A stretch of DNA of 64,000 nt from Candidatus Collierbacteria bacterium (GCA_016183365.1 JACPES010000003.1:269051-333050), one strand, 5' to 3'. Shown: positions 18,421 to 64,000, numbered from the stretch's first letter. Made by a program: numbers and translations. Notes: generated by a model not told the origin, from the letters alone.

Positions 18421-19713
18421 ATGACTATTGCAGTCGTTGGTGTGGGTTTTGTCGGCCTAGTAACCGCGGCGGTGTTTTCTAAATTCGGCAATACCGTTTG
18501 GGCGGTTAACCGAGATAAACAAAAGTCGGAAGAACTCAAAAAGGGCAAAGTTCCTTTTTTTGAGCCCGGTTTAGAGGAATTAGTCAAGGAAAACGTTGAT
18601 GCCGGCCGATTGAAGTTCACGGTTGAATACCCGGAGGCTATCCGCGAAGCGGATGTGATTATGATAGCCGTCGGAACTCCGTCAGCGCCGGACGGAACCG
18701 CTGATTTATCCGCCGTTTTCGAGGCGGCCCAATCTTTAGCCCCGCATATAAAAACCGGAGCGATCATAATTGTTAAATCGACTGTGCCGCCCGGGACAAA
18801 CAACAAGGTTAAAGAAATTATCAAAATTTATACCAAGAAACAATTTTATACCGCTTCAGTCCCGGAGTTTTTGCGCGAAGGCACTGCGGTCGAAGACACT
18901 TTGCACCCAGACCGGATATTAATCGGGGCCAATGAGCCGTTCGTCATTAAAAAACTTTTGGAATTGCACCGGCCTCTGAACGGAGAAACCGTAATTATGC
19001 GTCCGGAATCCGCCCAACTGACTAAATATTCGGCCAACGCTTATTTAGCCAACCGGATCGTATTTATTAATCAGATATCCGATTTGGCCGAGAAAACCGG
19101 GGCCGATGTTCAGGAGATTATCCGCGGAATGGGGCTGGATCGCAGGATCGGCTTGCATTACTGGTGGCCGGGCCTTGGTTATGGTGGGAGTTGCTACCCC
19201 AAAGATATTAAAGAATTGACGGCTTACGCCAGAAGGGTGGGTGAAGGCGATGGATTATTTGAAAAAATAGACCAATTAAACGAAAATCGGCTCTTAAAAA
19301 TGCTTTCCAAATTTGAAAAAGCCGTTGGTGGCTGGAACGGGAAAACTATTGCCGTTTTAGGGTTATCGTTTAAGCCCAACACCGACGATATGCGGGAAGC
19401 GCCTTCGATGAAAGTGATTCCGGTCTTGACTGCTGCCGGAGCAGCGGTTTCGGTCTATGACCCTCAAGCGTCTGGTCATGCTAAAAAAATCTTGGGAGAC
19501 AGTGTCGCTACGTATGCCGCTAATCCCTATGAAGCTGTAAAAGGAGCAACTGCATTAATAATTTTAGTGGAGTGGGACGAATTCAGATCATTGGATTTGG
19601 CTAAAATTAAAAAGAATATGACTACAGACGCGGTTTTTATTGACACCCGGAATTTATATGATCCGCAAAGAATTAAAGAAGCAGGATTAAAGTATGTCGG
19701 AATAGGAAGATAG
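18421..19713 (+). CDS. ugd: UDP-glucose 6-dehydrogenase
   Basis: MTIAVVGVGFVGLVTAAVF (NAD-binding GxGxxG) and UDPG/GDP-mannose dehydrogenase family features (…GGSCYPKDI…). Start trimmed to 18421. Confidence 0.85.
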   Translation: MTIAVVGVGFVGLVTAAVFSKFGNTVWAVNRDKQKSEELKKGKVPFFEPGLEELVKENVDAGRLKFTVEYPEAIREADVIMIAVGTPSAPDGTADLSAVFEAAQSLAPHIKTGAIIIVKSTVPPGTNNKVKEIIKIYTKKQFYTASVPEFLREGTAVEDTLHPDRILIGANEPFVIKKLLELHRPLNGETVIMRPESAQLTKYSANAYLANRIVFINQISDLAEKTGADVQEIIRGMGLDRRIGLHYWWPGLGYGGSCYPKDIKELTAYARRVGEGDGLFEKIDQLNENRLLKMLSKFEKAVGGWNGKTIAVLGLSFKPNTDDMREAPSMKVIPVLTAAGAAVSVYDPQASGHAKKILGDSVATYAANPYEAVKGATALIILVEWDEFRSLDLAKIKKNMTTDAVFIDTRNLYDPQRIKEAGLKYVGIGR

Positions 19714-19784
19714 GAGAAATTGCTAAATTGCTACATCGCTAAACTTGAACTATGTAACAATCTAACAATATAACAATATAACAA

Positions 19785-20666
19785 TTGAACATTCTTGTCA
19801 CCGGCGCTAACGGATTTGCCGGCCGTCATTTGGTTGAACGTCTTAAGGTCAGCGGTTATACGGTCTTGACTCCGAAAATTGACTTATTAAACGCGACTGA
19901 AACTGAAGTGGTTATTTCCAAACATGAGTTTAACGGGGTTATTCATTTGGCGGCCATGGCCGAAGTCGGGACCAGCCTGATTTCTCCGGCTAAAATTCTC
20001 CGGAATAATATTTTTGCCCAGTTGAATTTACTGGAAACTTTAAGGCGGAGAAAATCCGCGGCTAAAGTTTTAATCATCTGCAGCGCCGACGAATATGGCG
20101 GCAGTCAGGGAGAGCTCATCGATGAAAATACTCCCCTGATGCCAGCCAGCCCTTACGCGGTTTCAAAAGTGGCCCAAGATTTTTTGGGGCTGCAATATTT
20201 TTTATCCTATGGATTAAATATTATCAGGCTTCGGCCTTTTAATCATATCGGCGAGGGGCAACGGACCGGTTTCGTGGTTCCGGATTTTGTCAGACAGATT
20301 GTTGACATAGAAAGAAGCGGTAGTCCCAATGAAATTGTGGTGGGAAATTTAGAAGCCATCCGCGATTTTACCGATGTTAAAGACATGGTTAGGGCTTATG
20401 AATTGGCTCTGACAAAAGGCCAAGCCGGGGAAGTCTACAACGTCGGTTCAGGTCAGGGCATCAAGATTTCTTATCTGCTTCAAGAATTGATTAAGATGTC
20501 AAAGGCCAAAATTAAAATTACAGTGGATAAGTCCAGATTCCGTCCCGGAGAATCCCCTCAACTGGTTTGCAACCCCGGAAAATTTATCCGGGCTACCGGT
20601 TGGAAACCGGAGATTCCTTTAAATAAAACCCTGGAGAGAGTGCTAGAATATTGGCGAAGCAATTAA
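19785..20666 (+). CDS. NAD-dependent epimerase/dehydratase (GDP-4-keto-6-deoxymannose reductase / Rmd-like)
   Basis: ILVTGANGFAGRHL (Rossmann) and an SDR-type YxxxK (PYAVSKVAQ). Located immediately upstream of gmd. Confidence 0.7.
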   Translation: MNILVTGANGFAGRHLVERLKVSGYTVLTPKIDLLNATETEVVISKHEFNGVIHLAAMAEVGTSLISPAKILRNNIFAQLNLLETLRRRKSAAKVLIICSADEYGGSQGELIDENTPLMPASPYAVSKVAQDFLGLQYFLSYGLNIIRLRPFNHIGEGQRTGFVVPDFVRQIVDIERSGSPNEIVVGNLEAIRDFTDVKDMVRAYELALTKGQAGEVYNVGSGQGIKISYLLQELIKMSKAKIKITVDKSRFRPGESPQLVCNPGKFIRATGWKPEIPLNKTLERVLEYWRSN

Positions 20667-20756: not shown

Positions 20757-21788
20757 ATGTCAAAAAAGGCATTCATAACGGGTATCACCGGCCAAGACGG
20801 GAGTTATTTGGCTGAATTTCTGCTTGATCGCGGATACGAAGTTCATGGTTTGATTCGGCGCACCTCGACGGTATCGACGGAAAGAGTATCACACCTTCTT
20901 CACCATATTTCCGTAGTTGACGGCGATCTCACAGATCAACATTCATTAACCCAAGCCATTCAAGACATCAAACCGGATGAAGTATACAATTTGGCAGCTC
21001 AATCGTTTATTCCCACTTCTTTCCGTCAGCCGGTCCTAACCGGAGAAGCCAGCGCTTTAGGCGTTACCAGAATTCTGGAAGCCGTCCGCATCGCCAAACT
21101 CGACACCAAATTCTATCAGGCCAGTTCTTCAGAAATGTTTGGTAAAGCGGTGGAAGTCCCCCAATCGGAAACTACCCCGTTTTCTCCCCGCAGTCCCTAC
21201 GGGGTAGCCAAGGTCTACGGCCATTGGATCACAGTTAATTATCGCGAAGCTTACAATCTTTTCGCTGTATCCGGTATACTCTTTAACCACGAATCTCCCC
21301 GCCGCGGCTTAACCTTCATTACCCGGAAAATTACCATGAGCGTCGCTTGTCTGGCAACCGGCCTAAAATGGGTGCCGCAAAATGAAATCGGCGAGCCATT
21401 AGTTACCGCGGACGGTAAAATCGCTGTCGGCAATCTCGAGTCAAAAAGGGATTGGGGTTTCGCCGGAGATTATGTCGAGGCCATGTGGATGATGCTGCAG
21501 CAAAAACAACCTGACGATTTTGTCATTGGCACCGGCGAAACTCATTCTGTCAAAGAGTTTATCCAAACTGCTTTTGAATCCGCCGGACTAAAAAATTGGG
21601 AATACCATGTTACAGTCGATAAAAGATTTTACCGGCCTGCCGAAGTTGATTTATTGATAGCCGACCCTGCAAAAGCCAATAGAAAGTTGGGCTGGAAACC
21701 AAAGACCAGCTTCAAAGAATTGGTGAATATGATGGTGGAACACGATATTAAATTTGTCAAAAGACAAATTGAGGGAAATCAGAAATGA
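20757..21788 (+). CDS. gmd: GDP-mannose 4,6-dehydratase
   Basis: [31 protein letters not shown]…, the classic Gmd N-terminus, with SDR catalytic residues. Confidence 0.9.
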
Positions 21789-22945
21789 CAAAACAATCAA
21801 AAAAACAAACCGTGGTGATGGTAATTCCAACCTACGATGAACGTGGAAACATCGGCAGGGCTATAGATCAATTGGAAGATGTTTTTAAGAAAATTCCGCT
21901 TAACTACGAGATGCATATTTTAGTGGTTGATGATTCATCTCCGGACGGGACCGCCGACGAGGTGAAAACAAAAATGAAACAGCTGAAAAATGTTCACCTG
22001 TTGATAAATAAGAAAAAGATGGGATTGGGCGGAGCATATTTATCGGGAATGAAATACGCCGTCGAAAAATTGAATCCGGATATTTTCTTTGAATTCGACG
22101 CCGATCTGTCTCATGATCCCAAGTTGGTGCCGCAGTTTTTAACAAAACTGGAGGAGGGCTATGACTTGGTGTTGGGGAGCCGTTATATAAAAGGCGGCGC
22201 CATCCCAGACAATTGGGGATTAAAGAGAAAATTCTATAGCGTAGTCGGGAATATGATTATTATGTTTGTTTTAACCGACTTCAGTATTCGCGACTGGACC
22301 ACCGGTTACCGGGCAATCCGCCGCTATGTTTATGAAAAAGTTTATCCGTTGTTGGGAGAAGAGCGGTTTTTCGGTTATACCTTTCAGATTGGTTTCTTGC
22401 ACAAAGCCGTCCGGGCCGGATTTAAAGCCGGAGAAGTGCCCTTGAAATTCGTGGACCGGACTTTAGGTCGGAGCAAATTGGGGGCGGAATATATTAAAAA
22501 TACTTTAATTTATATTTTCAAAGCCCGATTTTTTGAATTATTGCGGTTCTTCAAATTTGCCACAGTCGGTTCTTTAGGTCTGGTAATCCAAACCGCTCTC
22601 TATTGGATCTTAGGATTCGGATTGAAAGTCGTTTCTCCAACCGTTGCCACCATTCTTGGAGGACAGCTGGCAATCTTGTCAAATTTTATTTTGAATAATG
22701 TCTGGACATTCGGCGACCGGAAAATCACTTCGGTGCCGGTACTGCTTAAAAAACTGGCCGTTTTCTATGCCACATCCAATATTGCCGTTCTGTTTATTCA
22801 GGGCGGAATAATGAAAACAGGTGAGTTAATCGTGGGGAGGGAGAATATTTTAATTCATGGATTTTACGTGGCCGCCTTAGTTTTGACTCTTGTTTTTAAC
22901 TTCACAGTTTACAATAAATATATTTGGAAAAAGGCTCAAGGCTAA
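21785..22945 (+). CDS. Polyprenol-phosphate mannose/hexose synthase (GT2 catalytic domain fused to C-terminal GtrA-like TM domain)
   Basis: [14 protein letters not shown]…[10 protein letters not shown]…DADLSHDP (GT2 / DPM1-like), then 4 TM helices (GtrA-like). Confidence 0.8.
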
Positions 22946-23070: not shown

Positions 23071-23811
23071 ATGTCAAAAAAGACTTCTGTCGACATTGTC
23101 GTTCCGGTATATAACGAAGAAATAGCCCTGCCTGACAATATTCCGATGCTATATAACTATTGCAGAAATAACTTGTCCGAATATGATTGGCGGATAATTA
23201 TCGCCGATAACGCTTCGACGGATTCGACTTCTGCCATCGCCAAAAAATTTGCTAAAAGGCCGCAAATTTCCTATCTCAAGCTTCCCACGAAAGGCAGAGG
23301 GTTGGCCTTAAAGACTGCTTGGCTTAATTCTCAAGCTCAAATCGTCAGTTATATGGACGTGGATTTATCGTCAAATTTGGAATTTTTCAAGGGCTTGCTT
23401 TCGGCGATTGAAGATAGTTCCGATATCGCCATAGGTTCCCGTTTAGCCAGAGGGGCAAACGTGGTCGGGAGGACCGTTTTGCGCGGAATTATGTCCAGGG
23501 GTTATAATTTATTGATAAAAGCGTTTTTTTCAATATCATTCAAAGACGCTCAGTGCGGTTTTAAAGCAATAAAAAAAAGCGTTTTTCAGAATTTGGAACC
23601 TTTGATTGAAAATAATAATTGGTTTTTTGATTCTGAAATGTTAATTTTGGCTGAAAAATCAGGATATAAGATTGCTGAAATCCCGATCTCTTGGCATGAC
23701 GACCCCAGCTCAACCGTTAAAGTCGCCAAAACCGCCAGTGAGGACTTCAAAGGTTTGTTTCGTTTATGGAAAACAAAGCCCTGGAAAAATGTCAGAAGGG
23801 GGGATGGCTAG
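23071..23811 (+). CDS. Family-2 glycosyltransferase (polyprenyl-phosphate sugar synthase-like)
   Basis: VDIVVPVYNEE…IIIADNASTDST…DVDLSS (GT-A DxD). Confidence 0.75.
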   Translation: MSKKTSVDIVVPVYNEEIALPDNIPMLYNYCRNNLSEYDWRIIIADNASTDSTSAIAKKFAKRPQISYLKLPTKGRGLALKTAWLNSQAQIVSYMDVDLSSNLEFFKGLLSAIEDSSDIAIGSRLARGANVVGRTVLRGIMSRGYNLLIKAFFSISFKDAQCGFKAIKKSVFQNLEPLIENNNWFFDSEMLILAEKSGYKIAEIPISWHDDPSSTVKVAKTASEDFKGLFRLWKTKPWKNVRRGDG

Positions 23812-25347
23812 ATGGTTACAATGAACAAAATGGCTAAATTGCCAAAATGGCTACAATGGTTTAAAAAACCACAGATCTTAATTTTGATTTTCATTTTAAT
23901 TGTGGCTGCGTTCTTACGTTTATATCGTATCAGGGATTACATCGTTTTTTTAGGCGATGAAGGCCGCGACGCTTTAGTTTGGTTTAACATGGTGGAAAAA
24001 GGCAAATTCACTTTTTTGGGTCCAACAGCTTCGGTCGGAGGATTTTATTTAGGGCCGGTTTATTACTATTTGGCTTTGCCGTTTTATTTCATTTTCCGCG
24101 ATCCGGTCGGGCCGGCAATTTTCGTAGGCTTATTGGGAGTAGCTACGGTTTGGCTGATTTATTTCGTTACCCAAAGATGGTTTGGAAAAACTTCCGGATT
24201 ATTCGCTTCAGGGATATACGCCGTTACTTCTTTGGTTATCCGTTATTCCCGGGCGTCCTGGAATCCAAACCCGGTACCATTTTTCTCCCTGTTGGGAATA
24301 TACTGGGCCGCTACCGGGGCGAAAGAAAAAAAATGGTGGAAATTAGTCGGAGCCGGAGTTTGTTTGGGGATTCTGTGGCAACTTCATTATTTAACCTTGA
24401 TAATGGCCCCGATTTACTTAATAATTGTATTGATATATAGCAACATTGAAGGTCTGACCTTCAATCGGGCGATACGCCAAGTATTTTTGTTAACGGTCGG
24501 GTGGATGATCGGATTTTCTCCGTTTTTGGCGTTTGAAATTTACCATCATTTTCCCAATGCCAGAACGGTTTTAGAGTTTATCAGTCGACCCAATGGCGCA
24601 GTTTTTAATTGGGAACTTTTGGGACTGTTCAGGTCGGTTATCCGTAATGCCAACAGGCTGACTTTGACTATTTTTAGTTGGCAAAACGGAGTAGTAACTT
24701 TAATCACGACTTTAATTTGGGCTCTGGGCGGGAGCTTGATGATTATTTTTAACAAATCGAATCGTTCGGACAAATTTTTGCCGCGCCAATCGTTGTTGTG
24801 GTGGTTTTGGCTGGGAATAACAATTTTTTCGCTCTATCAAGGCAGTATTTCTGATTACTATTTTGGTTTTTTATTTCCGGTTCCGGCTATATTCTTGGGA
24901 GCGGTAGCGGGATATCTGTTTGAAAAAAAACTGTTTGGCAGATTGTTGGCTGGATTTGTAACTTTGTGGCTGGTTTATGATCAGTCCGGCCGTTTATTTT
25001 TGCGGTTTGAGCCAAATAGATTGCTTCAGCAAACAGAATCTGTTTCCCGCCAAGTAATCTCCCTTTCGGGAAATGAACCATATAATTTTGCCTTGATAAC
25101 TTCCGGAAACAGCGACCACGCCTATCGTTATTTTTTAGAAAAGCTTAATCGGCCGCCGGTTAAGCTTCAGGATTTGATTGCCAAGCAGTTGATAGTGGTT
25201 TGCGAAAAACCGGCCGGCGATTGCCAGCCTTTGGGAAATCCAATTTGGGAAATAGCCGGTTTCGGCCGGGCCGAAGTTGCCGATTCCAAAATTATCCCGC
25301 CGGGGATTACAATCTATAGACTAACGCATTATTTTGGTCAATTATAA
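23812..25347 (+). CDS. GT-C-like polytopic membrane protein (paralog family with 27100 and 51903)
   Basis: The shared N-terminal pattern FLGDEGRDAL…LGPTASVGGFYLGPVYYYLALPF is conserved in three paralogs. Acidic DE motif in the first loop. Confidence 0.5.
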   Translation: MVTMNKMAKLPKWLQWFKKPQILILIFILIVAAFLRLYRIRDYIVFLGDEGRDALVWFNMVEKGKFTFLGPTASVGGFYLGPVYYYLALPFYFIFRDPVGPAIFVGLLGVATVWLIYFVTQRWFGKTSGLFASGIYAVTSLVIRYSRASWNPNPVPFFSLLGIYWAATGAKEKKWWKLVGAGVCLGILWQLHYLTLIMAPIYLIIVLIYSNIEGLTFNRAIRQVFLLTVGWMIGFSPFLAFEIYHHFPNARTVLEFISRPNGAVFNWELLGLFRSVIRNANRLTLTIFSWQNGVVTLITTLIWALGGSLMIIFNKSNRSDKFLPRQSLLWWFWLGITIFSLYQGSISDYYFGFLFPVPAIFLGAVAGYLFEKKLFGRLLAGFVTLWLVYDQSGRLFLRFEPNRLLQQTESVSRQVISLSGNEPYNFALITSGNSDHAYRYFLEKLNRPPVKLQDLIAKQLIVVCEKPAGDCQPLGNPIWEIAGFGRAEVADSKIIPPGITIYRLTHYFGQL

Positions 25348-25367: not shown

Positions 25368-26117
25368 ATGTATCCATTCTTATCAATCGTAATTCCTTCT
25401 TTTAACGAATCTGAAAATATCGCTAAAGGCGCGCTGAATGAGGTGGATAAATATTTATCCGGCCAAAAATATGATTGGGAAACAATTTTAGTTGATGACG
25501 GGTCGACTGACGGGACATTGGAGGATTTGCAAAAATGGATAAATGGTAAAAAGCATTGGCGGGTAATAAAAAATTCTCATCAAGGGAAAGCCCGGGCGGT
25601 AAAAACCGGAGTCTTGAGCGCGCGAGGAGACCTGGTTTTGTTCACTGATTTTGATCAAGCTACTCCTCTATCCGAGGTAGAGAAATTGCTTCCGTTTCTG
25701 CAAAAGGGTTATAACGTGGCAATCGGGTCGCGGGAGGTGAAGGGCAGCGAGCGCCTCGGTGAGCCCTGGTACAGACACCTGATGGGAAAAGTATTTAATT
25801 TTTCCGTCCAAACCATCGCCATCGGCGGCATCCGCGACACCCAGTGCGGCTTCAAACTTTTCACCAATCAGGCCGCCAAAGATCTATTCAATAGTTTGAT
25901 TGTTTACGGCAACGGGATTGAAAAACAGGCCTTCACCGGCGCATTTGACGTCGAACTGCTATACATCGCTCAAAAACGGGACTACAAAATCGCCGAAGTC
26001 CCGGTTTCTTGGCGCCACATTAAAACCAACCGCGTCAATCCTCTCCGCGACTCCGCTAGAATGTTTTTTGATGTCATCCGAATCCGAATGACAGATTTGT
26101 TCGGGGGTTACAGATGA
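25368..26117 (+). CDS. Family-2 glycosyltransferase (DPM-synthase-like)
   Basis: LSIVIPSFNESENI…LVDDGSTDGT…FTDFDQATP. Confidence 0.75.
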   Translation: MYPFLSIVIPSFNESENIAKGALNEVDKYLSGQKYDWETILVDDGSTDGTLEDLQKWINGKKHWRVIKNSHQGKARAVKTGVLSARGDLVLFTDFDQATPLSEVEKLLPFLQKGYNVAIGSREVKGSERLGEPWYRHLMGKVFNFSVQTIAIGGIRDTQCGFKLFTNQAAKDLFNSLIVYGNGIEKQAFTGAFDVELLYIAQKRDYKIAEVPVSWRHIKTNRVNPLRDSARMFFDVIRIRMTDLFGGYR

Positions 26118-48776: not shown

Positions 48777-49532
48777 CTAACCATTTTGACCATTTTGTCT
48801 ATATTCCGGGTGTCCGGTTAATTTTTTCATTCTTTCTGTTATCATGATTCTTAAATATTTCGGCACCGACTGAAAAATTGTTAATTTTGATTGTCCTTCA
48901 CCGCGGCGCTCGTATTGGATGGGAATTTCACCGACTTTGTATCCGTGGAGGTGAAATTTTATCGGGATTTCGGTGTGAATTTCAAACCAACCGCTTTTTA
49001 AGTTTAATTTTTTAAGAGCGGACGCTCTCATGATTCTATAGCCGCTGCTGGCATCATGAAGCGGATAACCGGTAGTAAGTTTGGCGGCTAAAACGCAAGC
49101 TTGCGATAATAATAGACGAAAAGCCGGACCGTCCATCGATCCTCCGGAAACGAAGCGGCTGCCGATAACCATGTCATAGCCTTTGTTTGCGGCGGAGATA
49201 AAATCCGGAATTTCCTCCGGTCGGTGAGATAGGTCGGTATCCATGGTGATAATCCATTTGCCGCGGGCAACGGCAAATCCGGCTCTTTCGGCGTTCCCCG
49301 GTCCATTATTGGAATAGCGGTGAATGACTTTAATCTGTGGGAATTCATCCGATAGTTTGTCCAGAATTTTCCCGGTATTATCCGAGCTGACGTCATCAAT
49401 GGCGATAATTTCATAAGAAAGTCGGTTGCTTGTGGCCATTTTGATAATTCTGGATATAAAAGAGAGGATATTTCCTTCTTCATTGTGAGCCGGAGTAACT
49501 ATGGAATATTTAATGTCTTTAGTCTTTGGCAT
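48777..49532 (-). CDS. Family-2 glycosyltransferase (DPM-synthase-like)
   Basis: YSIVTPAHNEEGNI…IIAIDDVSSDNT…TMDTDLSHRP. The C-terminus is encoded by CCATTTT-type tandem repeats. Confidence 0.78.
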   Translation of the reverse strand: MPKTKDIKYSIVTPAHNEEGNILSFISRIIKMATSNRLSYEIIAIDDVSSDNTGKILDKLSDEFPQIKVIHRYSNNGPGNAERAGFAVARGKWIITMDTDLSHRPEEIPDFISAANKGYDMVIGSRFVSGGSMDGPAFRLLLSQACVLAAKLTTGYPLHDASSGYRIMRASALKKLNLKSGWFEIHTEIPIKFHLHGYKVGEIPIQYERRGEGQSKLTIFQSVPKYLRIMITERMKKLTGHPEYRQNGQNG

Positions 49533-56129: not shown

Positions 56130-58190
56130 ATGATTAAAAGACAATTATTTCAATCAATTAATCAATTAATTAATTGGAGAGAAATTAAACCATATCTGGC
56201 ATTTTCTTTTATCTGGATAATATTTTCGTACCCTTTCTTTTTTCAGGGCAGGATTCCGGCGCCGCTGGATTTTTTGGTTAATTTTTACGCGCCGTGGGAT
56301 ACCTACTATGATTCGCCGGTAAAAAATCCGAGCTTATCCGATGTGGTCGCCCAAATAATTCCATGGAAGATTTTCAATGGCCAAGAACTGCGCGCTGGCA
56401 GAATTCCCTTATGGAATCCATATAATTTGACAGGGGCACCTCATTTGGGGAATTGGCAAAGCGGGGTTTTGTATCCGACGACTTTATTGTTTCTGATTTT
56501 TCCAGATCCTATTGCTTGGTCGCTTCATGTTTTACTTCAACCTTTGCTGGCTGGAATTTTTATGATTTTATTTTTACGGCAACTAAAAATTTCCCCCCTA
56601 GCTTCACTTTTGGGAGCAATAGTTTTTGCATATGGCGGATTTATGACATCCTGGTTTGAATGGGGAACTTTGGGCCACGCTCTGCTGTGGTTGCCGCTGG
56701 CATTATACGGAATATTAAGGACGAAGGACGAAGGACGAAGGACGAAGATATCAGCGTTAACGATTTTTTCTTTAACAATGTCTCTTTTGGCGGGGCATCC
56801 ACAAACCTCGATTTACGTCATGATTGCAGTTATCGGATACTATTTATATAAGAATATAAGAAATGACAATAAGCTCTCACTGTTTCTTGTTTCTTGTTCC
56901 TTGTTTCTTATCCCCATACTTCTTGCAGCCCCCCAAGTTTTTCCTTCAATCCAAGTTTATTCGGAGTCTGCACGGAATTTGGTTGACGGCAGAAGCTGGG
57001 CTAAAGCGTTTTTGATCAAGCCTGCCGATTTTTTAACATTCCTCGCTCCGGATTTCTTCGGTAATCCTACTACCAGAAATAGTTGGAGCGATTTTTCGTA
57101 TGTGGAAATGCAAGGATATGTTGGTGTCGTGACTTTTATGTTGGCATCAGTGGCTGTTATGAACATTAAAAGGCCTGGTCCCGCGGTGGCGGGGTCTAGC
57201 CTTATCAAGTTTTTGATTTGCGGGATTGTTATCGCATTAATGCTGGCGACTAAAAATCCGATTTCGGAATTGATTATTGATTTGAATTTGCCAATTATTT
57301 CCGACAGCAGTCCGGCCAGAATCATGGGACTAATTAACTTTTCATTGGCGGTTTTGGCGGCATTTGGTCTGGATTCTTTTACAAAACTTATTAAAGAGAA
57401 AAAGACAAAATTCTTAAACTCCGGGATTTATTTTATCGCGGCTATTTTGGCCGGAATGTGGATATGGACTTTTGCGTCAACTAATCCTAATGCCCTGGTG
57501 ACCAGAAGAAACTTGATTTTTCCCTCAACCGTTTTTGCGGTCTTTAGTATGGCGTATTTTCTGATTTCAAAAATATTCGCTAATCCGCGGGTCCGGACAT
57601 TGTTTTTTGTTTTTTGTTTTTTGTTTTTTGTCTCTCTCGATCTTTTCCGCTTTCACCATAAATTTACGCCTTTTTCAGATATAAAAAATTGGTATCCGGA
57701 AGTTCCGGTTATTACTCAACTCAAATCATCTTCAGGACGAATTTTTGGGACTTTGGAGGCGAATTTAAACCTGCCGTTTAGGTTGAAATCAATTGATGGT
57801 TACGATCCCTTAATCAATCGGAATCTTGTTTTAATGACGTACGATCCACAGGCGCTGTCAACACATAACAGGATTACTTCGCCGGACTTTCCGAAGGGAA
57901 ACGCCCAAACAATTGCCAGCTTAGGTAAATTGGGAGTCAAGAGAGTTATAGATTCTGCCGTTCCCGGGGGTAATTCCTGGGATCTTCGGTTATGGGAATA
58001 CGGCGATCAGTTCCGGTTGGATTGGAAAGATGTAAAGTATCAGATACTTTACAACACGCAGGCTCAAGAATCAGAACTGGAACCGATTTCCGGAATGAAA
58101 AACGGCCAAATAAAACTATTTAACCTTGGGATATTAATTTCCAGCTCGACCGTATTTGGTATGCAAATTTGGAAAAAATATGCTAAATAA
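56130..58190 (+). CDS. YfhO-like GT-C polytopic membrane protein (paralog of 34475/59927)
   Basis: …YAPWDTYYDSPVKNPSLSDVVAQIIPW…GRIPLWNPYNLTGAPHLGNWQSGVLYP…. Contains (ACGAAGG)4, (TTTCTTG)4 and (GTTTTTT)4 heptamer arrays and a degraded palindrome at 57168..57205. Confidence 0.5.
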   Translation: MIKRQLFQSINQLINWREIKPYLAFSFIWIIFSYPFFFQGRIPAPLDFLVNFYAPWDTYYDSPVKNPSLSDVVAQIIPWKIFNGQELRAGRIPLWNPYNLTGAPHLGNWQSGVLYPTTLLFLIFPDPIAWSLHVLLQPLLAGIFMILFLRQLKISPLASLLGAIVFAYGGFMTSWFEWGTLGHALLWLPLALYGILRTKDEGRRTKISALTIFSLTMSLLAGHPQTSIYVMIAVIGYYLYKNIRNDNKLSLFLVSCSLFLIPILLAAPQVFPSIQVYSESARNLVDGRSWAKAFLIKPADFLTFLAPDFFGNPTTRNSWSDFSYVEMQGYVGVVTFMLASVAVMNIKRPGPAVAGSSLIKFLICGIVIALMLATKNPISELIIDLNLPIISDSSPARIMGLINFSLAVLAAFGLDSFTKLIKEKKTKFLNSGIYFIAAILAGMWIWTFASTNPNALVTRRNLIFPSTVFAVFSMAYFLISKIFANPRVRTLFFVFCFLFFVSLDLFRFHHKFTPFSDIKNWYPEVPVITQLKSSSGRIFGTLEANLNLPFRLKSIDGYDPLINRNLVLMTYDPQALSTHNRITSPDFPKGNAQTIASLGKLGVKRVIDSAVPGGNSWDLRLWEYGDQFRLDWKDVKYQILYNTQAQESELEPISGMKNGQIKLFNLGILISSSTVFGMQIWKKYAK

Positions 58191-58893
58191 ATTCTTTTTA
58201 CCTCCTGATGTTTTTATTCGCCACTGGTTGGTAGCGCGAGAGATTCGCAAAGGGCCTCTCCGAAGGTTATCGGGAGAATCATTATTAGATGTTGGGGGAT
58301 CGCTCGCTGAATTTCGTAAATTTATAGCCAAACTGGAAATTACCACCGCGGACGTGGTGGCGGGAGCAGACGTTGTCTATAATGGCCAAAAACTTCCGTT
58401 AGATAATGCTTCATTTGATTATGTAGTCTCGGTTGATACTTTAGAACACATCCCGCCGGAAAAAAGATTAGGTTTTGTGAATGATTTAGTTAGAGTAGCT
58501 AAACAAAGAGTTGTTATTATCGCGCCTTTTGCTTCAATGCAACATGATATATATGAGAAAAATTTAATATTGGATTTCAAGAAGAGTGAAAAAAAGATTC
58601 CGGTTTATTTAACTGAACATCGAAAACACGGTTTGATAAGTCTCGGTCAGTTAATTGAGATCGGGAAAAGTTACCCGACGGCAATTTACAGTCTAGCCGG
58701 TCTGGTTTGGCTGGATAAATTAAATTTTGCGGTCCACATGTTTGAAGTCAATCCCGGAAAAATAAACAGAGTTATTTATATTTTAAAGTTTATTTGGAAT
58801 TTGGTTATAAACCTTATATCTTCTTTAATGATTATTAATCCTGATAAAAATACGGCCAGCAGGGTAATTATCGTTATTGACAAATACAATTGA
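58180..58893 (+). CDS. Class I SAM-dependent methyltransferase
   Basis: LDVGGSLAEF (motif I-like) … VVSVDTLEHIPPEKRLGFVNDLVRVAK (motif II/III-like). ATG at 58180. Confidence 0.6.
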   Translation: MLNKFFLPPDVFIRHWLVAREIRKGPLRRLSGESLLDVGGSLAEFRKFIAKLEITTADVVAGADVVYNGQKLPLDNASFDYVVSVDTLEHIPPEKRLGFVNDLVRVAKQRVVIIAPFASMQHDIYEKNLILDFKKSEKKIPVYLTEHRKHGLISLGQLIEIGKSYPTAIYSLAGLVWLDKLNFAVHMFEVNPGKINRVIYILKFIWNLVINLISSLMIINPDKNTASRVIIVIDKYN

Positions 58894-59930
58894 AGAAAAT
58901 TTTAATCCATTCTCCATATTGGCATATCGGCGGCGGCGGAGAACGATACGCTTTGACAGCGGCGCAATGTTTAAGTCGTGAGGCTTTAGTCTCGGTGGAC
59001 GTGGGAGAAAATAACAACTTGGAAGTTCTCGGTGAAAGCTTGGGGCTAGATTTAAACCGGGTGAAAACCGTTCGAAAAATAACCGAGGTTAAGAAAATTA
59101 TAGGTTTCGATGGCATATTTTGGCTGTCAGATGGCAGTATCCCATTTCTGCCGTTTTTTTCGACTAAAGTTATTCATTTTCAAGCTCCGTTCCAAAAAGT
59201 AGATGGTAAAAACCTGAAAAACAGGTTGAAACTAATGGGGACTAAAGTGATTTGTAATTCCAAATATACTAAAGGGTTTATTGATAAAGAATTCGGGATA
59301 AATTCAATGGTGATTTATCCGCCGGTTGCGACTGACCGATTTAAACCAATGTCTAAGGACAAATTGATTTTGACAGTTGGCCGATTTAGTTCTTCTTCCC
59401 AATTTAAACGTCAGGATTTACTGATAGAGGCGTTTAAAGATTTAATCAAAAACAGAGTTAGGGGTTGGAGGATGGTTGTGGTCGGTAAAGTCGAAGATAA
59501 CCAAAGCCTTAAAATGATTTCCGACCTAAGGTCGAAAATAAAAGGTTTTCCGATAACCATTAAAACAGATTTAGATCAGGACAGATTAAGGTCTCTTTTT
59601 TGCCGGTCGGCGATATATTGGCACGCTGCAGGTTACGGAGTAAATTTGAACGATTATCCGGAACGAGCCGAGCATTTCGGCATTAGCACGGTTGAAGCTA
59701 TGGCCGCCGGAGCTATTCCGTTATCTTTCGCTGCCGGTGGTCAATTAGAAATAATTTCTAGTGGGGAGAACGGATTTTTATGGACAACTTCGCAGGAACT
59801 GATAATGCTGACAAAAAAGATAATTAATGATTCCGAATTAAAAGAGCGGATTGGTTTGGCGGCTATTAGCCGGGCCGAGAATTTTAGCCAAGACAATTTC
59901 TGTCGGAAAATTAGAGAATTGTTTAAGTGA
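58890..59930 (+). CDS. GT4 (group 1) glycosyltransferase
   Basis: C-terminal GT-B pattern …LTVGRFSSSSQFKRQDLLIEAF…FGISTVEAMAAGAIPL…. Confidence 0.72.
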   Translation: MKKILIHSPYWHIGGGGERYALTAAQCLSREALVSVDVGENNNLEVLGESLGLDLNRVKTVRKITEVKKIIGFDGIFWLSDGSIPFLPFFSTKVIHFQAPFQKVDGKNLKNRLKLMGTKVICNSKYTKGFIDKEFGINSMVIYPPVATDRFKPMSKDKLILTVGRFSSSSQFKRQDLLIEAFKDLIKNRVRGWRMVVVGKVEDNQSLKMISDLRSKIKGFPITIKTDLDQDRLRSLFCRSAIYWHAAGYGVNLNDYPERAEHFGISTVEAMAAGAIPLSFAAGGQLEIISSGENGFLWTTSQELIMLTKKIINDSELKERIGLAAISRAENFSQDNFCRKIRELFK

Positions 59931-62011
59931 AAATATTAAATTTGGTTCGAAATTTAATAGCTTATGTCATTCCAGCGATCCTTCGACAAGCTCAGGATGG
60001 TGAGCACCGTCGAACCAAAGCTGGAATCTATTTAAATAGTAGTTCCGCCAAAGGCGGAATGACAATGGTGATTTTGATTGTACTATCTTTGTCTTTTTTC
60101 TGGCCTGTATGGTTTAAGGGAAAACTGCCGATTCCGGCCGATGCTTTAGTCGGATTGTATCACCCGTTCCGAGATTATTACGCGGCTGATTTTCCGAATG
60201 GGGTCCCGTTTAAAAATTATATTTTGACTGATCCGGTATTGCAGCAGTACCCGTGGAAATGGTTAGCTATAAATCAGTTAGGGAGTATCCTTAAAGGAGT
60301 CTCCTTTAAGGATACTCCCTTGTTGGAAAATCCTTATTCTTTTGGCGGTTACGGAGCCAGTTCAATAGAAAATATTCAGGCGGGGACATTTTATCCGCTG
60401 AACATCCTTTTTTTTCTTATCAATAATTTTTCCGCGGCATGGACGGTTTTTATCATCCTTCAGTCAATCTTGGCTTCATTATTTATGTACTGGTGGCTTA
60501 AAGAAAATTCCTTAAAAAATTCGGCAGCGATTTTTGGCGGGTTAGTTTGGGCGTTTTCTTCTTTCAATTTGGTCTGGCTGGAGTGGGGGAATATTGGACA
60601 TGCCGGACTGTGGTTGCCATTGGCACTATTGTGTGTTGACAAAATGCAAAAAACAAAAAACAAAAAACAAAAAACCTGGAAATGGCATGCGATTCTGCAA
60701 TTTGTACTATCAAGCAGCCTTTTTGCCGGACATTTGCAAGTGACGCTTTATCTACTGATGGCTGTGGCGCTGTATTGGTTTATCCGGCTGGGTATTTCGA
60801 AACGATCTATTTCATTGTTTCTTGTTTTTTGTTTCTTGTTTCTTGCCCTTACGTCCATTCAATGGATTCCATCACTGAAATTTACTCTCTCATCAAATCG
60901 TGAAGTCGAGCAACAGGATGCTCTTACCCGCGAAGGGTTTTTCATTCGTCCCCATCAGTTAGTTCAAATGATAAGTCCGGATTTTTTTGGCAACCCGTCG
61001 ACTTTGAATTATCGCGGCGCTTGGAATTATGCCGAACAGGTAATTTATATCGGAATCATTCCTTTACTATTTGTTCTTTTAGGCGTTCTCACCAAAAACT
61101 CTCAAAAAAATGATGTAGATTCGATATGCTATAGCTTATCGAATCTACATCTACATAGGTTTTGTTGGTCGCTGATAATTATCGGTTTGTTGTTCGCGAC
61201 TGACAATCCGATTTCGCGTTTGCCTTATCAATTAAAGCTGCCATTAATTTCTGATCTGCAACCGACAAGATTATCTTATTTGATTACTTTCGGACTATCT
61301 TCCCTTTCGGCTTTTGGTCTCAACGAGTTTATTAAAAATCCCCGGAAATTATTCTCAAAAGTTATAACCATCGTTGTCGTCTTTACCGTTTTGCTGTTTG
61401 CCCTATTAATAATTAGCAGTAAACTTTCACCGGAAGATAAATTAATTTCCCAACGCAACTTAATATGGCCAGTAACGCTTTTGATTTTATTTTATATTTT
61501 AAGTGGATTGTTCTACTTGTTTGAGAACAAAAAACAAAAAACAAAAAACAAAAAACTTCAGCTCTTTGCTCTTTGCTCTTTGCTTTTTGTCATTTCCGAT
61601 CTCTTCCGTTTCGGCTGGAAATTTACTCCGTTCTCTCCAAAAGAATATTTGTATCCCATAACTCCTGCCATAAAATTTTTGCAAAACAATATTCGGGAAA
61701 ACGACAGATATATGACTTTAGACCGCCGCATTTTACCTCCGAATGCAAATATAATTTATGAATTGAAATCAATCGAAGGTTACGATCCAATTTATTCGAA
61801 ACAATACGCGTTGTTAATAGGAGAGATGGAATCCGGGGAAGTAGCCGATAAGCCGCAGAGTTTTGGTCGGATTATCAGGCCTATAAACTATAAATCCCCG
61901 ATTACTGCTCTTTTGGGAGTCCGTTACGCGCTTAGTCTGTCTGATCTTGAAGAGGAGAGGTGGGTTAAGGTTTTTCAAGAAGGGAAAACTAGAATCTATG
62001 AAAGACGGTAG
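59927..62011 (+). CDS. YfhO-like GT-C polytopic membrane protein (paralog of 34475/56130); start uncertain
   Basis: The ORF call uses GTG at 59927. Alternative ATGs at 60059 and 60065 lie at the end of the 59966..60063 repeat element. Carries (AAAAAAC)4 ×2, (TTTGCTC)3 and (TTTCTTG)4 arrays and a perfect 39-bp palindrome. Confidence 0.5.
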   Translation: MKILNLVRNLIAYVIPAILRQAQDGEHRRTKAGIYLNSSSAKGGMTMVILIVLSLSFFWPVWFKGKLPIPADALVGLYHPFRDYYAADFPNGVPFKNYILTDPVLQQYPWKWLAINQLGSILKGVSFKDTPLLENPYSFGGYGASSIENIQAGTFYPLNILFFLINNFSAAWTVFIILQSILASLFMYWWLKENSLKNSAAIFGGLVWAFSSFNLVWLEWGNIGHAGLWLPLALLCVDKMQKTKNKKQKTWKWHAILQFVLSSSLFAGHLQVTLYLLMAVALYWFIRLGISKRSISLFLVFCFLFLALTSIQWIPSLKFTLSSNREVEQQDALTREGFFIRPHQLVQMISPDFFGNPSTLNYRGAWNYAEQVIYIGIIPLLFVLLGVLTKNSQKNDVDSICYSLSNLHLHRFCWSLIIIGLLFATDNPISRLPYQLKLPLISDLQPTRLSYLITFGLSSLSAFGLNEFIKNPRKLFSKVITIVVVFTVLLFALLIISSKLSPEDKLISQRNLIWPVTLLILFYILSGLFYLFENKKQKTKNKKLQLFALCSLLFVISDLFRFGWKFTPFSPKEYLYPITPAIKFLQNNIRENDRYMTLDRRILPPNANIIYELKSIEGYDPIYSKQYALLIGEMESGEVADKPQSFGRIIRPINYKSPITALLGVRYALSLSDLEEERWVKVFQEGKTRIYERR
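59966..60063. repeat. Full-length GC-rich palindromic element GTCATTCCAGCGA … GGCGGAATGAC at the 5' end of a GT-C gene
   Basis: Long-range stem ATTCCAGC/GCTGGAAT plus a TTCCGCCAAAGGCGGAA hairpin. Translated in frame if the GTG start is used (…VIPAILRQAQDGEHRRTKAGIYLNSSSAKGGMTM…). Confidence 0.7.
60281..60319. repeat. Perfect 39-bp palindrome GGGAGTATCCTTAAAGGAG-T-CTCCTTTAAGGATACTCCC inside a CDS
   Basis: 19-bp arms checked by hand. Encodes GSILKGVSFKDTPL. The core AAAGGAGTCTCCTTT recurs at 52832..52846. Confidence 0.88.
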
Positions 62012-63650
62012 AAAGATTGTTTTCTTTCTATTCTTTTTTTCTCTGTTTTTGAGGGTAGTGTGGTGGGGTAAGTTTCCTCCGGGATTTACTGCAGATGAAG
62101 CGATAATGGGTTACGACGCCTATAGCTTACTTAAAACCGGAAAAGATCAATTCGGAACATCCTGGCCGCTGGCATTCAGATCGTTCGGCGACTGGCGACC
62201 GCCTTTATACATATACACGTCAATGCCGTTTGTGGCCATTTTTGGATTGACTCCATTGGCGGTTAGACTGCCATCGATGATTGCCGGATCACTGGAAATA
62301 GTTCTTATCTATCTGGTTGGAAAAGAGATTTTCTCGAGGGACACCGGACTATTTTCTGCAATTTTACTTATGCTGTCTCCATGGTCAATATTGCAAACCC
62401 GATTTGCCCAGGAAGCAAATCTTTCTACTTTAACTATATTTGCCGGAATAGCAGGTTTAATTTTTTGGATAAGAAGGAAAAAGTGGAAACATATTGTTTG
62501 TAGCGCGTTGTTTTTTGGCCTGTCATTTTATTCATACCACAACGCCAGATTAACAACGCCTCTTATTTTGCTTGGATGTTTAGTCTTAATAAAGTCAGTT
62601 AAAATTGTGTCCGGACGACAAATTGTGATTGCGGTGATAATTGGAATTTTAACAGTGTTGCCGCAATTAGTTTGGATGAAAAATAATCCGCAGACAATAT
62701 TCCGCCGCGCTTCTTCCCAAAGCGTTCTCACTGATCAGGGCATCAAAGGCTCTTTATGGAAAGATATTGTATCGATGCCGCCGGGTTATCCGGTTTGGCT
62801 GTCGAGATTACAGCACAATAAGCCGCTCTATTATGGGAGAGCGATTTTTAAAGGATATCTGTCGCATTTAGATCCGCGGTTTTTGTTTTTTTCCGGTGAT
62901 CCGCATGAACGGTTTAGAATGCCTTATTCCGGGCTCCTCAATTGGACAATGTTGTTATTTTTGCCAATCGGTTTTTTTATGGTTCTAAAACGCTGTTTTC
63001 GTTATACAGATAAATCTCTGGCGTTTTCTTTCCGCTTAATTGTTTGGTGGCTTTTGGTTGCTCCGGTTGTGGCCTCCTTATCAACCATTGTGCCAAATTC
63101 TCAACACGCCCAAGATTTAATGATTCCGCTTCATCTCATCGGCGGAATTGGCGCTGCCTTGGTTTTTGAACGGATGGCTGTTCTACAAAAATCCCTTGCC
63201 TTTTCATTGTTTTTCGTTTCTCTTTCCTTGTTTCTTTATGGTTATACGCAGATAATCCCTGTTCAAACGAAATATCTTCAGGCTTGGCATTACTATGGTA
63301 ATTTATTCGAAAAATTACGCCCATATAACCAGAGCAAAATAGTATTTTTGGGCGGGCAATACTATATCAATTTAGCATTTTATTTGAAAGTTGATCCTTT
63401 GGCGTTTCAGAAAGAAGTAAAGATTTCACAACCGGATAATTTGGCGGAATTAGATCATGTGGAATCGTTTGGCAGGTTTACCTTCACCAGAGATCGCGAT
63501 ATTCCAAACAATGTAGATATTAATACTTTTTATGTGCGATTGAATGAATTCGAAGAAGTGTTGCCCGAAGGTACTACTGTTGTTGATCGGGAAGTTTGGC
63601 CGGACGGGAAAAGAGAATATATAATTTTTCGATATAATGGGAAATCATGA
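61998..63650 (+). CDS. GT-C superfamily glycosyltransferase (PMT/ArnT family)
   Basis: …GKFPPGFTADEAIMGYDAYSLLKTGKDQFGTSWPLAFRSFGDWRPPLYIY… (PMT-type loop-1 signature). ATG at 61998 (the ORF call from 61947 overlaps the previous gene). Confidence 0.62.
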   Translation: MKDGRKIVFFLFFFSLFLRVVWWGKFPPGFTADEAIMGYDAYSLLKTGKDQFGTSWPLAFRSFGDWRPPLYIYTSMPFVAIFGLTPLAVRLPSMIAGSLEIVLIYLVGKEIFSRDTGLFSAILLMLSPWSILQTRFAQEANLSTLTIFAGIAGLIFWIRRKKWKHIVCSALFFGLSFYSYHNARLTTPLILLGCLVLIKSVKIVSGRQIVIAVIIGILTVLPQLVWMKNNPQTIFRRASSQSVLTDQGIKGSLWKDIVSMPPGYPVWLSRLQHNKPLYYGRAIFKGYLSHLDPRFLFFSGDPHERFRMPYSGLLNWTMLLFLPIGFFMVLKRCFRYTDKSLAFSFRLIVWWLLVAPVVASLSTIVPNSQHAQDLMIPLHLIGGIGAALVFERMAVLQKSLAFSLFFVSLSLFLYGYTQIIPVQTKYLQAWHYYGNLFEKLRPYNQSKIVFLGGQYYINLAFYLKVDPLAFQKEVKISQPDNLAELDHVESFGRFTFTRDRDIPNNVDINTFYVRLNEFEEVLPEGTTVVDREVWPDGKREYIIFRYNGKS

Positions 63651-64000
63651 AACGCTGGCCGATTTTTTTTCTTTTAACAATCTTATTTTTTCTTCATTTT
63701 TATAGGCTAGGAGATATACCACCCGGATTAAACAATGATGAGGCGAACATTGGTTATGAAGCATGGTCTATTGCCACCACCGGCCGCGACCAATGGGGAA
63801 ATTTTTTGCCGCTGGTATTTCAAGGCTTCGGTAACTGGAGTTTGCCGGTTTATATTTATTTAACTGCTCCATTTGTTCGGATATTAGGGCCGACGATTCT
63901 TGCGGTTCGGGCGGTTTCCGCGTTGTCATTTTTGGCGCTGGTTTTATTGGTCTATGCGATTGTCAAAAAATTCCGGCCGCAAATAGCTTTTCCGGCGGCA
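63647..64000 (+). CDS. GT-C superfamily glycosyltransferase (PMT/ArnT family), 3' end outside the window
   Basis: …GDIPPGLNNDEANIGYEAWSIATTGRDQWGNFLPLVFQGFGNWSLPVYIY…, a paralog of the preceding gene. ATGA start/stop overlap. Confidence 0.6.
   Translation, partial: MKRWPIFFLLTILFFLHFYRLGDIPPGLNNDEANIGYEAWSIATTGRDQWGNFLPLVFQGFGNWSLPVYIYLTAPFVRILGPTILAVRAVSALSFLALVLLVYAIVKKFRPQIAFPAA

Follow-up and report, generated by a model that had tools for sequence, protein, structure and literature searches.

A stretch of 64,000 nucleotides from the ultra-small, uncultured Candidatus Collierbacteria bacterium (GCA_016183365.1, JACPES010000003.1:269051-333050; hereafter the window) carries, between positions 18421 and 64000, a nearly unbroken run of glycosylation genes lying mostly on the + strand, as read from the open reading frame (ORF) listing and from scans with Pfam and NCBIfam profiles. 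Gene content and gene order point to a conserved cell-envelope glycosylation locus of the Microgenomates, within the Candidate Phyla Radiation (CPR), and not to a variable island. By analogy with known systems, a few lipid-linked sugar donors would probably feed many extracytoplasmic glycosyltransferases of the GT-C type, which build one or a few complex envelope glycoconjugates.

The run encodes 15 large polytopic membrane proteins, nine family 2 glycosyltransferases (GT2), one GT4, one Wzx/MOP flippase, two short-chain dehydrogenase/reductase (SDR) proteins, ugd, gmd, and a methyltransferase, and the genes for the 15 membrane proteins take up 23,964 nt (52.6%) of positions 18421-64000 (Table 1; genes are designated by first coordinate). 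The initial annotation had proposed at least 15 GT-C membrane proteins in this region, accompanied by ugd, gmd, two SDR epimerases/reductases, Wzx, a GT4, and a methyltransferase. All of the accompanying genes were recovered by Pfam or NCBIfam, and profile searches, run as a test that could refute the assignment, placed no large membrane protein in a non-glycosyltransferase family. Judged from sequence and predicted structure, every one of the 15 is a GT-C glycosyltransferase, each assigned by at least one tested line of evidence (Pfam/NCBIfam family, paralogy, profile comparison, or predicted fold). Eight score at or above the Pfam gathering threshold: five for PMT_2/PMT (23812, 28820, 30358, 31747, and 61947) and one each for GT87 (33229, − strand), YfhO (34475), and PTPS_related (38825). 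Another five (27100, 37455, 51903, 56130, and 59927) are joined to these by BLASTP paralogy within the window; for instance, 27100 has matches in 23812 (2.6e-9) and 51903 (4e-11). Homologs of 37455 among public proteins mostly carry PF10131 or PF09586, and most homologs of 56130 carry PF09586. For 26114, the NCBIfam MptB match (3e-8) is below cut-off; among 20 orthologs scanned with NCBIfam, 16 matched MptA (TIGR03459, best 1.3e-15) and four matched MptB, and precomputed annotation also assigns orthologs to PF26314, MptA_B_family.

A hydropathy scan, which is a crude predictor, gave approximately 6-12 transmembrane (TM) segments in each of the 15 proteins, GT-C enzymes typically having 8-13. 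An acidic motif follows the first TM helix as DE in 23812, 28820, 30358, 31747, and 61947, as DD in 37455, 38825, and 49562, and as DxxxD in 27100 and 51903; the GT87 protein 33229 has an Asp in loop 1, and the motif is less clear in 26114 and the YfhO trio. Sequence searches of the PDB provided no fold support for 49562, 38825, or 34475 as single sequences and nothing useful for three profile alignments, and the fold was therefore tested by structure prediction. Two representatives, 37455 and 49562, were modeled, the remaining 13 being assigned as sequence families. The AlphaFold model of 37455 (33 sequences) had a predicted local distance difference test score (pLDDT) of 90.1, and its top 21 PDB matches were all GT-C structures, with STT3, AftD, ALG12, PglB, AglB, ArnT, EmbA/B, and a GT-C-like GPI-transamidase subunit among them. 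The product of 49562 has no family match and nine homologs found, and in its family the sequence FFQDDFF right after the first TM helix is invariant. Compared with the set of PMT_2 paralogs in the window, this small family scored 90% probability in hhalign (E 1.5e-6); the 13 best PDB matches of the model (pLDDT 72.6) comprised 12 GT-C enzymes, STT3, ALG12, PglB, ArnT, Pmt4, and DPY19 among them, together with a GT-C-like GPI-transamidase subunit.

Fifteen is a lower bound. A PMT_2 protein is encoded upstream at 8202-9512, a partial PMT_2 occupies 63647-64000, a 615-residue PTPS_related-like protein follows beyond the window (24.1 bits, just below the 26.4 cut-off), and a further PMT_2 comes next in a related contig, so that there are at least 15-18 GT-Cs in all and the locus exceeds 50 kb.

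Donor synthases are fewer. Five of the nine GT2s (21785, 23071, 25368, 36663, and 48777) are DPMS-like and form one similarity group; their best NCBIfam matches are PgfS, ArnC, AglJ, PpgS, and Dol-P-hexose transferase, all below the equivalog cut-offs (Dol-P-hexose transferase, AglJ, and ArnC being best for 23071, with PgfS, AglJ, Dol-P-hexose transferase, and ArnC among the top matches of 25368). PDB searches, made for two of the five, matched 48777 to the Pyrococcus enzyme PfDPMS (5mlz, 5.6e-31), ArnC (6e-20), and GtrB (8e-16), and 21785 to PfDPMS (1.3e-36 over residues 9-326) followed by ArnC and GtrB. The architecture of 21785, a GT2 joined to a GtrA/DPMS TM domain, is that of archaeal DPMS; it alone of the five has TM helices, the other four being of the soluble type, like DPM1 or GacI, and no small partner protein was identified. 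The four conventional GT2s (41903, 51005, 53453, and 54289) resemble EpsD, MftF, rhamnosyltransferase, and GlfT1 by NCBIfam.

Each GT-C had been thought to be preceded or followed by a DPM1-like GT2. This arrangement did not hold: in the ORF listing, six of the 15 GT-Cs directly adjoin a GT2 of any kind, the interval 27100-36766 contains six consecutive GT-Cs with no GT2 between them, and five donor synthases stand against at least 15 GT-Cs, a ratio of about 1 to 3 or 4. The 1:1 ratio of GT2 to GT-C with a GtrA flippase that characterizes Gtr-type modules is absent, and no stand-alone GtrA is encoded in the window. The underlying ArnC/ArnT-type logic, with a GT2 supplying the lipid-phosphate-sugar and a GT-C consuming it outside the membrane, does fit the families found, and the GT-Cs here would be expected to use polyprenyl-phosphate sugars on the extracytoplasmic face.

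Two proteins of the window match NCBI entries HYU89_02910 and HYU89_03010 at 100% identity; both entries belong to a Candidatus Collierbacteria metagenome-assembled genome, on a contig of 588,265 bp. Gene order was compared with that in another Collierbacteria sequence (J, JACRNH010000024.1), ENA contig k141_425440 (K), and JGI contigs L084, L087, and L091. The left-flank order rpoC, cohesin, RmuC, MetRS, GT2, ArgRS, Nramp, SNase, methyltransferase, UppP, ugd, SDR, gmd is common to the window and J, and the cluster keeps its position after UppP in J. The center and right of the cluster are syntenic in J and K, with the central order also present in L084, L087, and L091. Most GT-C orthologs are 56-86% identical, DPMS-like GT2s 78-89%, and Wzx and the SDRs 81-87%. 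GT-C paralogs within the genome share at most 32% identity by BLASTP, indicating that the duplications are ancient. A wider set of 80 metagenome loci was anchored on homologs of 37455 with 31-72% identity; the 38 of these that are at least 12 kb long (12-22 kb) each hold 4-9 GT-Cs, 0-3 DPMS-like GT2s, and 0-3 conventional GT2s. Several share a recurring order (DPMS-like GT2, MptB-like, PMT_2, PTPS_related, YfhO, PMT_2, PTPS_related, PTPS_related, DPMS-like GT2, Wzx, three conventional GT2s, YfhO, GT4), and a recognizable core order persists in distant relatives in which the PTPS_related anchor is 31-38% identical. Levybacteria, Chisholmbacteria, and the Microgenomates group are among the named sources of homologs. 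Among 74 genome loci anchored instead on ArgRS, which served to place the window taxonomically, a GT-C was present in only two; one of the 74, L044, shows left-flank synteny.

In the synteny comparison, variation was confined to three slots, an insert at 43.9-47.6 kb, RhuM, and an extra PTPS_related gene carried by J on the − strand. L087 has the 30358 gene, whereas K, L084, and L091 lack it and J carries a counterpart of only 39% identity. For 49562, identity is 78% to K but 24% to J, and for 61947 the corresponding values are 86% and 36%. Between the 42851 SDR and DUF362, each genome has its own genes unrelated to glycosylation: LarE/LarB/LarC for K, an ECF component with a phosphoribosyltransferase for J, and 2H-like, PaaX-like, and LarE genes for the window. 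A mobile or genomic island was considered and rejected, since G+C is unremarkable (0.37-0.46 across the cluster versus 0.40-0.48 in the flanks), no integrase, transposase, or other mobility gene is found in the window, and position and order are kept in relatives. The initial annotation had seen a surface-variation island here; synteny, ancient paralogs, ordinary G+C, and the lack of mobility genes speak against that label, although a minority of slots do vary.

The label had drawn in part on tandem repeats. Tandem Repeats Finder detected 22 period-7 arrays in the window versus 1.75 expected, with a maximum of four in 20 block shuffles, and 18 of the 22 lie inside GT-C genes or Wzx, all in frame (11938-11971, 12131-12161, 17188-22, 26137-26420, 28045-78, 37458-37515, 56717-57631, 60639-61589, and others are array sites). 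Copy number is 3-6.6, and many arrays are perfect, among them those at 26390, 37458/37483, 56717, 57600, and 61526. Some encode TM helices, (TCTTTGC)n being read as LFALCSLLFA and (TTTACTC)n as FTLYSLLFT, and (AAAAAAC)n arrays encode Lys-rich cytoplasmic loops (KKQKTKN); the N terminus of 37455 is encoded by two heptanucleotide arrays. Identical units recur across different genes and species.

Gain or loss of a single heptanucleotide unit shifts the reading frame, which makes phase variation a legitimate idea: many semi-independent Gtr-like GT2/GT-C modules, toggled by slipped-strand mispairing at the heptamers, would yield a combinatorially variable glycan coat. The excess of arrays and their concentration in GT-C genes and Wzx favor this proposal, as do the four places where a DPMS-like GT2 adjoins a GT-C and the three slots and one insert that differ between species. 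Orthologous arrays can also differ in unit and period (the 37455 N terminus is period-7 here and period-8 in K), consistent with turnover on evolutionary time scales. However, the array at 28045 is unchanged in unit and copy number in K, in which the ortholog is 72% identical, and all 15 GT-C genes of the window are intact and in frame. No frameshift-split GT-C was found by tblastn in approximately 90 related loci (80 metagenome loci hold 354 GT-C-like ORFs), and no copy-number polymorphism was seen in five independent assemblies, which are 100% identical through the imperfect arrays 26137 and 26317; short-read contigs break at perfect arrays. Logan contigs ending exactly at perfect heptamer arrays (61528 and 26419), considered as a sign of variation, were read as a k-mer assembly artefact, and an apparent repeat polymorphism between K contigs L075 and L076 proved to be a difference between gene callers, the DNA being 100% identical. 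Known phase-variable heptanucleotide tracts have 8-38 copies (PMC2651432), more than any array here. Similar arrays also occur in the essential ArgRS (two) and in a methyltransferase (one), and they are common in other Microgenomates loci. Together with the synteny across species and the excess of GT-Cs over donor synthases, these observations make a switchable surface-variation island improbable and the existence of many independent, switchable GT2/GT-C modules unlikely. As a sign of variability, the repeats are real and beyond expectation, but they are short, in frame, lineage- and genome-wide, and not polymorphic where tested. They look like a lineage-wide habit of slippage expansion, which TM helices and loops tolerate. 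A literature search found no description of in-gene heptamer repeats in CPR.

The conserved envelope locus with few donors and many GT-Cs that we favor can be laid out as a pathway, in which the donor lipid, the side of the membrane on which the enzymes work, a common acceptor, and the sequence of steps are inferred. Cytoplasmic enzymes would make UDP-glucuronic acid (Ugd), a GDP-6-deoxyhexose (Gmd and an SDR), and one further SDR product. Five DPMS/ArnC/GtrB-like GT2s would each load one sugar from a UDP- or GDP-sugar onto undecaprenyl phosphate, a carrier that UppP, encoded next door, may regenerate. The lipid-linked sugars could be flipped by Wzx, by the GtrA-like domain of 21785, or by both. 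At the outer face, at least 15-18 GT-Cs of four or five old families would each add a sugar to make a particular linkage or act on a particular acceptor, and the four conventional GT2s, the GT4, and the methyltransferase may act in the cytoplasm on a glycan, lipid-linked or otherwise. A GT-A enzyme, a flippase of GtrA or Wzx type, and a GT-C constitute multi-component transmembrane glycosylation systems, in which one flippase can serve several donors (PMC8035078; PMC5836110). Few donors, many GT-Cs, ancient paralogs, and conserved order suggest that the GT-Cs are most likely serial or branching enzymes on one or a few glycoconjugates. The closest analogy is the mycobacterial synthesis of lipomannan, lipoarabinomannan (LM/LAM), and arabinogalactan, in which PimE, MptA/B/C, Emb, and Aft play this part.

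Several observations weigh against this pathway. Neither an acceptor nor a priming phosphoglycosyltransferase, Wzy polymerase, ligase, or LCP enzyme turned up in the window, and no window ORF of at least 120 residues matched Bac_transf, MraY-type, or Wzy_C profiles, although such genes may be encoded in another part of the genome. Functional assignments are based throughout on homology and predicted fold. The few slots that differ sharply between species resemble serotype-type variation. Four DPMS-like GT2s adjoin a GT-C (23071/23812, 25368/26114, 36663/37455, and 48777/49562), so that some true donor/transferase pairs are likely and their existence is plausible. Finally, some or all of the GT-Cs may act in general protein O-glycosylation, modifying secreted or surface proteins (pilins, S-layer, or adhesin-like proteins) with different sugars in the manner of actinobacterial PMT/Ppm1. 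Eight of the GT-Cs are PMT/PMT_2-like, the best NCBIfam match of Wzx is an O-glycosylation flippase, and one GT2 is closest to AglJ, of S-layer glycoprotein glycosylation. CPR bacteria are monoderms not known to have lipid A, and an ArnT-type lipid A acceptor is accordingly improbable; lipid A modification itself was rejected on this ground and because no Arn partner genes are present. However, MIR or other protein-binding domains were not detected, no acceptor was found in the window, and the number of GT-Cs is far above that in known protein O-mannosylation systems. Moreover, lipoglycans and cell-wall polymers are what the GT87, MptA/B-like, and YfhO families are known to act on (PMC8035078, PMC5836110, NCBIfam names). 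We therefore hold protein O-glycosylation to be a rather unlikely explanation, though one to be reckoned with. Very improbable, in our estimate, is the further reading in which such an LM/LAM-like assembly line, with some 18 or more GT-Cs in one conserved supercluster, would be the densest GT-C repertoire known in any genome and the heptamer arrays would serve as low-frequency slippage switches by which populations vary single branches of the glycan. The assembly of one or a few envelope glycoconjugates, protein O-glycosylation, and a switchable repertoire are not fully exclusive.

Table 1. Predicted genes and other features of the window, with the evidence for each assignment (coordinates from the first nucleotide of the window; bit scores are given against the profile cut-off where noted)
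Coordinates	Strand	Feature	Evidence and remarks
6652..8154	+	Processive-type membrane GT2	Pfam Glyco_trans_2_3, TM helices; 74% in J; outside 18421-64000
8202..9512	+	Additional GT-C, PMT_2	Pfam 33.1 bits vs 26.1; DEA motif near N terminus; no ortholog in J
17477..18388	-	UppP/BacA undecaprenyl-diphosphate phosphatase	Pfam BacA 2e-69; divergent from ugd; equal position in J, 82%
18418..19713	+	ugd, UDP-glucose 6-dehydrogenase	TIGR03026 417 bits vs 189.8; top match TuaD; longest ORF from 18268, likely start near 18418
19785..20666	+	SDR sugar-nucleotide epimerase/reductase	Pfam; NCBIfam matches all below cut-off; adjoins gmd, plausibly GDP-4-keto-6-deoxymannose reductase or fcl-like enzyme
20757..21788	+	gmd, GDP-mannose 4,6-dehydratase	TIGR01472 444 bits vs 415 equivalog cut-off; Pfam
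21785..22945	+	Polyprenyl-phosphate-sugar synthase-like GT2 fused to GtrA/DPMS TM domain	Pfam GT2 + GtrA_DPMS_TM
23071..23811	+	Soluble DPMS/ArnC-like GT2, 246 aa, no TM helix	Pfam; NCBIfam; directly upstream of GT-C
23812..25347	+	GT-C, PMT_2	Pfam 37.1 bits vs 26.1; DE motif after TM1
25368..26117	+	Soluble DPMS/PgfS-like GT2, 249 aa	Pfam; NCBIfam; translationally coupled to 26114
26114..27124	+	GT-C, MptA/MptB type, 336 aa	NCBIfam; three heptanucleotide arrays inside
27100..28812	+	GT-C, divergent PMT_2-like, 570 aa, ~11 TM helices	PMT_2 21.6 bits, below cut-off; paralogy
28820..30361	+	GT-C, PMT_2	Pfam 44.9 bits; DE motif
30358..31644	+	GT-C, PMT_2, variable slot	Pfam 30.8 bits
31747..33315	+	GT-C, PMT/PMT_2, ArnT-like	Pfam 79.2 and 48.2 bits; PDB ArnT 5ezm 2e-14; no identical protein on record in exact-product look-up
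33229..34530	-	GT-C, GT87 (PimE-like mannosyltransferase)	Pfam GT87 2.4e-37; PRK13375 1.7e-23, below curated cut-off
34475..36766	+	GT-C, YfhO, 763 aa, ~255-aa C-terminal extracytoplasmic domain	Pfam YfhO 61.2 bits vs 28.5
36663..37448	+	DPMS/AglJ-like GT2	Pfam; NCBIfam AglJ 2e-39, PpgS 3e-25; likely true start near 36774, orthologs 224-232 aa
37455..38837	+	GT-C, PTPS_related/YfhO-like family	Paralog of 38825 (8e-31); DD motif after TM1
38825..40357	+	GT-C, PTPS_related, DD motif	PF10131 36.5 bits vs 26.4
40305..41831	+	Wzx/MOP-family flippase	Polysacc_synt_3 8.6e-52; NCBIfam O-glycosylation flippase 4.6e-35, below curated cut-off
41903..42823	+	Conventional GT2, one C-terminal TM helix, not DPMS-like	Pfam, NCBIfam
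42851..43882	+	SDR sugar-nucleotide epimerase/dehydratase	Pfam, NCBIfam
44172..48700	.	Species-variable insert, not glycosylation-related	2H-like ORF, PaaX/Cas2-like ORF, LarE, LarB/LarC remnants, DUF362 (-)
48777..49532	-	DPMS/ArnC-like GT2, 251 aa, no TM helix	PDB, NCBIfam ArnC 9.5e-25; divergent from 49562
49562..51004	+	GT-C, small divergent family	Motif, hhalign, fold model
51005..51928	+	Conventional GT2, EpsD/MftF-like	Pfam, NCBIfam
51903..53456	+	GT-C, PMT_2-like	Paralog of 23812: BLASTP 2e-37, 27% over 528 aa
53453..54292	+	Conventional GT2, rhamnosyltransferase/GlfT1-like	Pfam, NCBIfam
54289..55083	+	Conventional GT2, paralog of 41903	Pfam, BLASTP, NCBIfam
55088..56032	+	RhuM-family protein, inserted among glycosyltransferase genes	Pfam 1e-94; in window and J, absent in K
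56130..58190	+	GT-C, YfhO-like	YfhO 21.6 bits, below cut-off; BLASTP 2e-59 to 34475
58156..58893	+	Methyltransferase, possibly sugar O-methyltransferase	Pfam; weak MftM-like match 7.5e-9
58890..59930	+	GT4 (GT-B fold) cytoplasmic glycosyltransferase	Glycos_transf_1 2.6e-22
59927..62011	+	GT-C, YfhO-like paralog, four heptanucleotide arrays	BLASTP 1e-74 to 56130, 3e-62 to 34475
61998..63650	+	GT-C, PMT_2, DE motif (gene 61947)	Pfam 59.4 bits; exact 550-aa product on record; longest ORF from 61947
63647..64000	+	PMT_2 GT-C N-terminal part (full 546 aa), cut by window end	PMT_2 38.7 bits

Other repeats occur in and around the cluster. Period-8 and period-16 tandem arrays fill the spacers at 19717-19785 (ugd/SDR), 20665-20728 (SDR/gmd), and 42802-42865 (GT2/second SDR), and period-9 arrays are located at gene starts (23804, 34483, and 48757); a regulatory role for these arrays is possible. 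The 51903 gene contains two in-frame, GC-rich perfect hairpins (52229-52279 and 52528-52578; GGCCTGGCC...GGCCAGGCC), whose loop peptides are RPGLAGQGQA and KGLAPLSGARP, and another hairpin is present at 54572-54598. These elements are kept in K, J having other sequence instead, and are reminiscent of the Rickettsia palindromic elements inserted in genes. An ARAGORN call of a 98-nt tRNA-Ser(GGA) inside the YfhO gene (34729-34826, − strand) lacks Rfam support at the gathering score and is probably a false positive.

Within the species-variable insert, LarE is intact (45970-47661 stretch; TIGR00268 249 bits vs 150 cut-off), LarB is reduced to three frameshifted pieces (46850-47366), and LarC to terminal remnants (47376-47661). 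All three are intact in K, and the genome studied here seems to be losing the nickel-pincer cofactor pathway. An intergenic element with a CCGCGGCCGCGG palindrome is found at 10473-10510, 44125-44173, 44889-44980, and 45892-45978, including two 82-nt copies with 98% identity. It flanks the species-specific 2H-like and PaaX/Cas2-like genes, is also located upstream of ArgRS, and could be a terminator, a REP-like element, or an insertion footprint.

In the left flank, ArgRS (10512-12254) and MetRS (5218-6642) are 43% and 55% identical to the syntenic J genes, their neighbors being 82-95% identical. The window ArgRS is nearer to that of other Patescibacteria (53-54%, best identity); nearly all of its relatives are labeled Patescibacteria/Microgenomates or "bacterium," and labels of Gammaproteobacteria, Pseudomonadales, and Pacearchaeota were taken as mis-binned. 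This pattern suggests in-place xenologous replacement of the two aminoacyl-tRNA synthetases. A cohesin-domain protein directly after rpoC (2242-2937; approximately 70% in J) may be located at the surface or serve as a scaffold.

The genomes of CPR/Patescibacteria are tiny, and most of these bacteria live attached to other cells; to our knowledge their surface chemistry is almost uncharted. In a genome that we take to be about 1 Mb, as is usual for CPR, the locus would occupy roughly 5% or more. Such a share of a small genome, more than half of it GT-C and conserved across Microgenomates, suggests that a complex extracytoplasmic glycan is probably central to the biology of these organisms, e.g., in keeping the envelope intact, attaching the cell to its host, or protecting it from phage or grazing. 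The locus provides a concrete gene set for heterologous expression, glycomics, and structures of little-known GT-C families (PTPS_related, YfhO-like, and the 49562 family), and it illustrates that many paralogs and repeats do not by themselves indicate a variable island. No description of GT-C superclusters in CPR was found in the literature searched.

The Gram-positive systems CsbB/GtcA/YfhO, GtlA/GtlB, CsdAB/CD/EF, and GacI/J/K/L, as well as GtrABC, employ a GT-A-fold GT2 to make a sugar linked to undecaprenyl phosphate (C55-P-sugar), a GtrA- or Wzx-type flippase, and a GT-C with an acidic first-loop motif that transfers the sugar to an envelope polymer (PMC8035078, PMC5836110). The present locus resembles them in its YfhO-family members and in its soluble GT2s without TM helices, which are similar to GacI. 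In contrast, known organisms possess 1-3 GT-A/GT-C pairs, whereas at least 15-18 GT-Cs and five donor synthases are encoded here in one locus, and GtrA is present only as the GtrA/DPMS TM domain that forms part of one GT2. The use of many GT-Cs with few polyprenyl-phosphate sugars recalls the LM/LAM/arabinogalactan set of Corynebacterineae (PimE, MptA/B/C, EmbA-C, and AftA-D, with Ppm1/PpgS), of which GT87 (PimE-like), MptA/B-like, and PpgS/Ppm-like homologs are present here; no Emb or Aft family member is detectable here by sequence, although the predicted fold of 37455 matches AftD and EmbA/B. The mycobacterial genes for these polymers are dispersed around a 4.4-Mb genome, whereas the genes here are contiguous on a 588-kb contig of a metagenome-assembled genome, in a different phylum and with a different envelope. 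ArnC/ArnT modification of lipid A follows the same GT2-to-GT-C logic, and 31747 matches the ArnT structure as 48777 and 21785 match those of ArnC; however, ArnA, ArnB, and ArnD are absent here, and PfDPMS is a better match than ArnC. Phase-variable simple sequence repeat loci (lipooligosaccharide and capsule loci of Haemophilus, Campylobacter, and Neisseria) likewise have non-triplet tandem repeats inside glycosyltransferase genes, from which the tracts here differ in being short, in frame, not polymorphic where tested, present also in an essential gene, and lineage-wide. Each component is of a known family, and the GT2-to-GT-C logic is known as well; what is unusual is their scale and contiguity in a small-genome CPR lineage, conserved across a CPR class.

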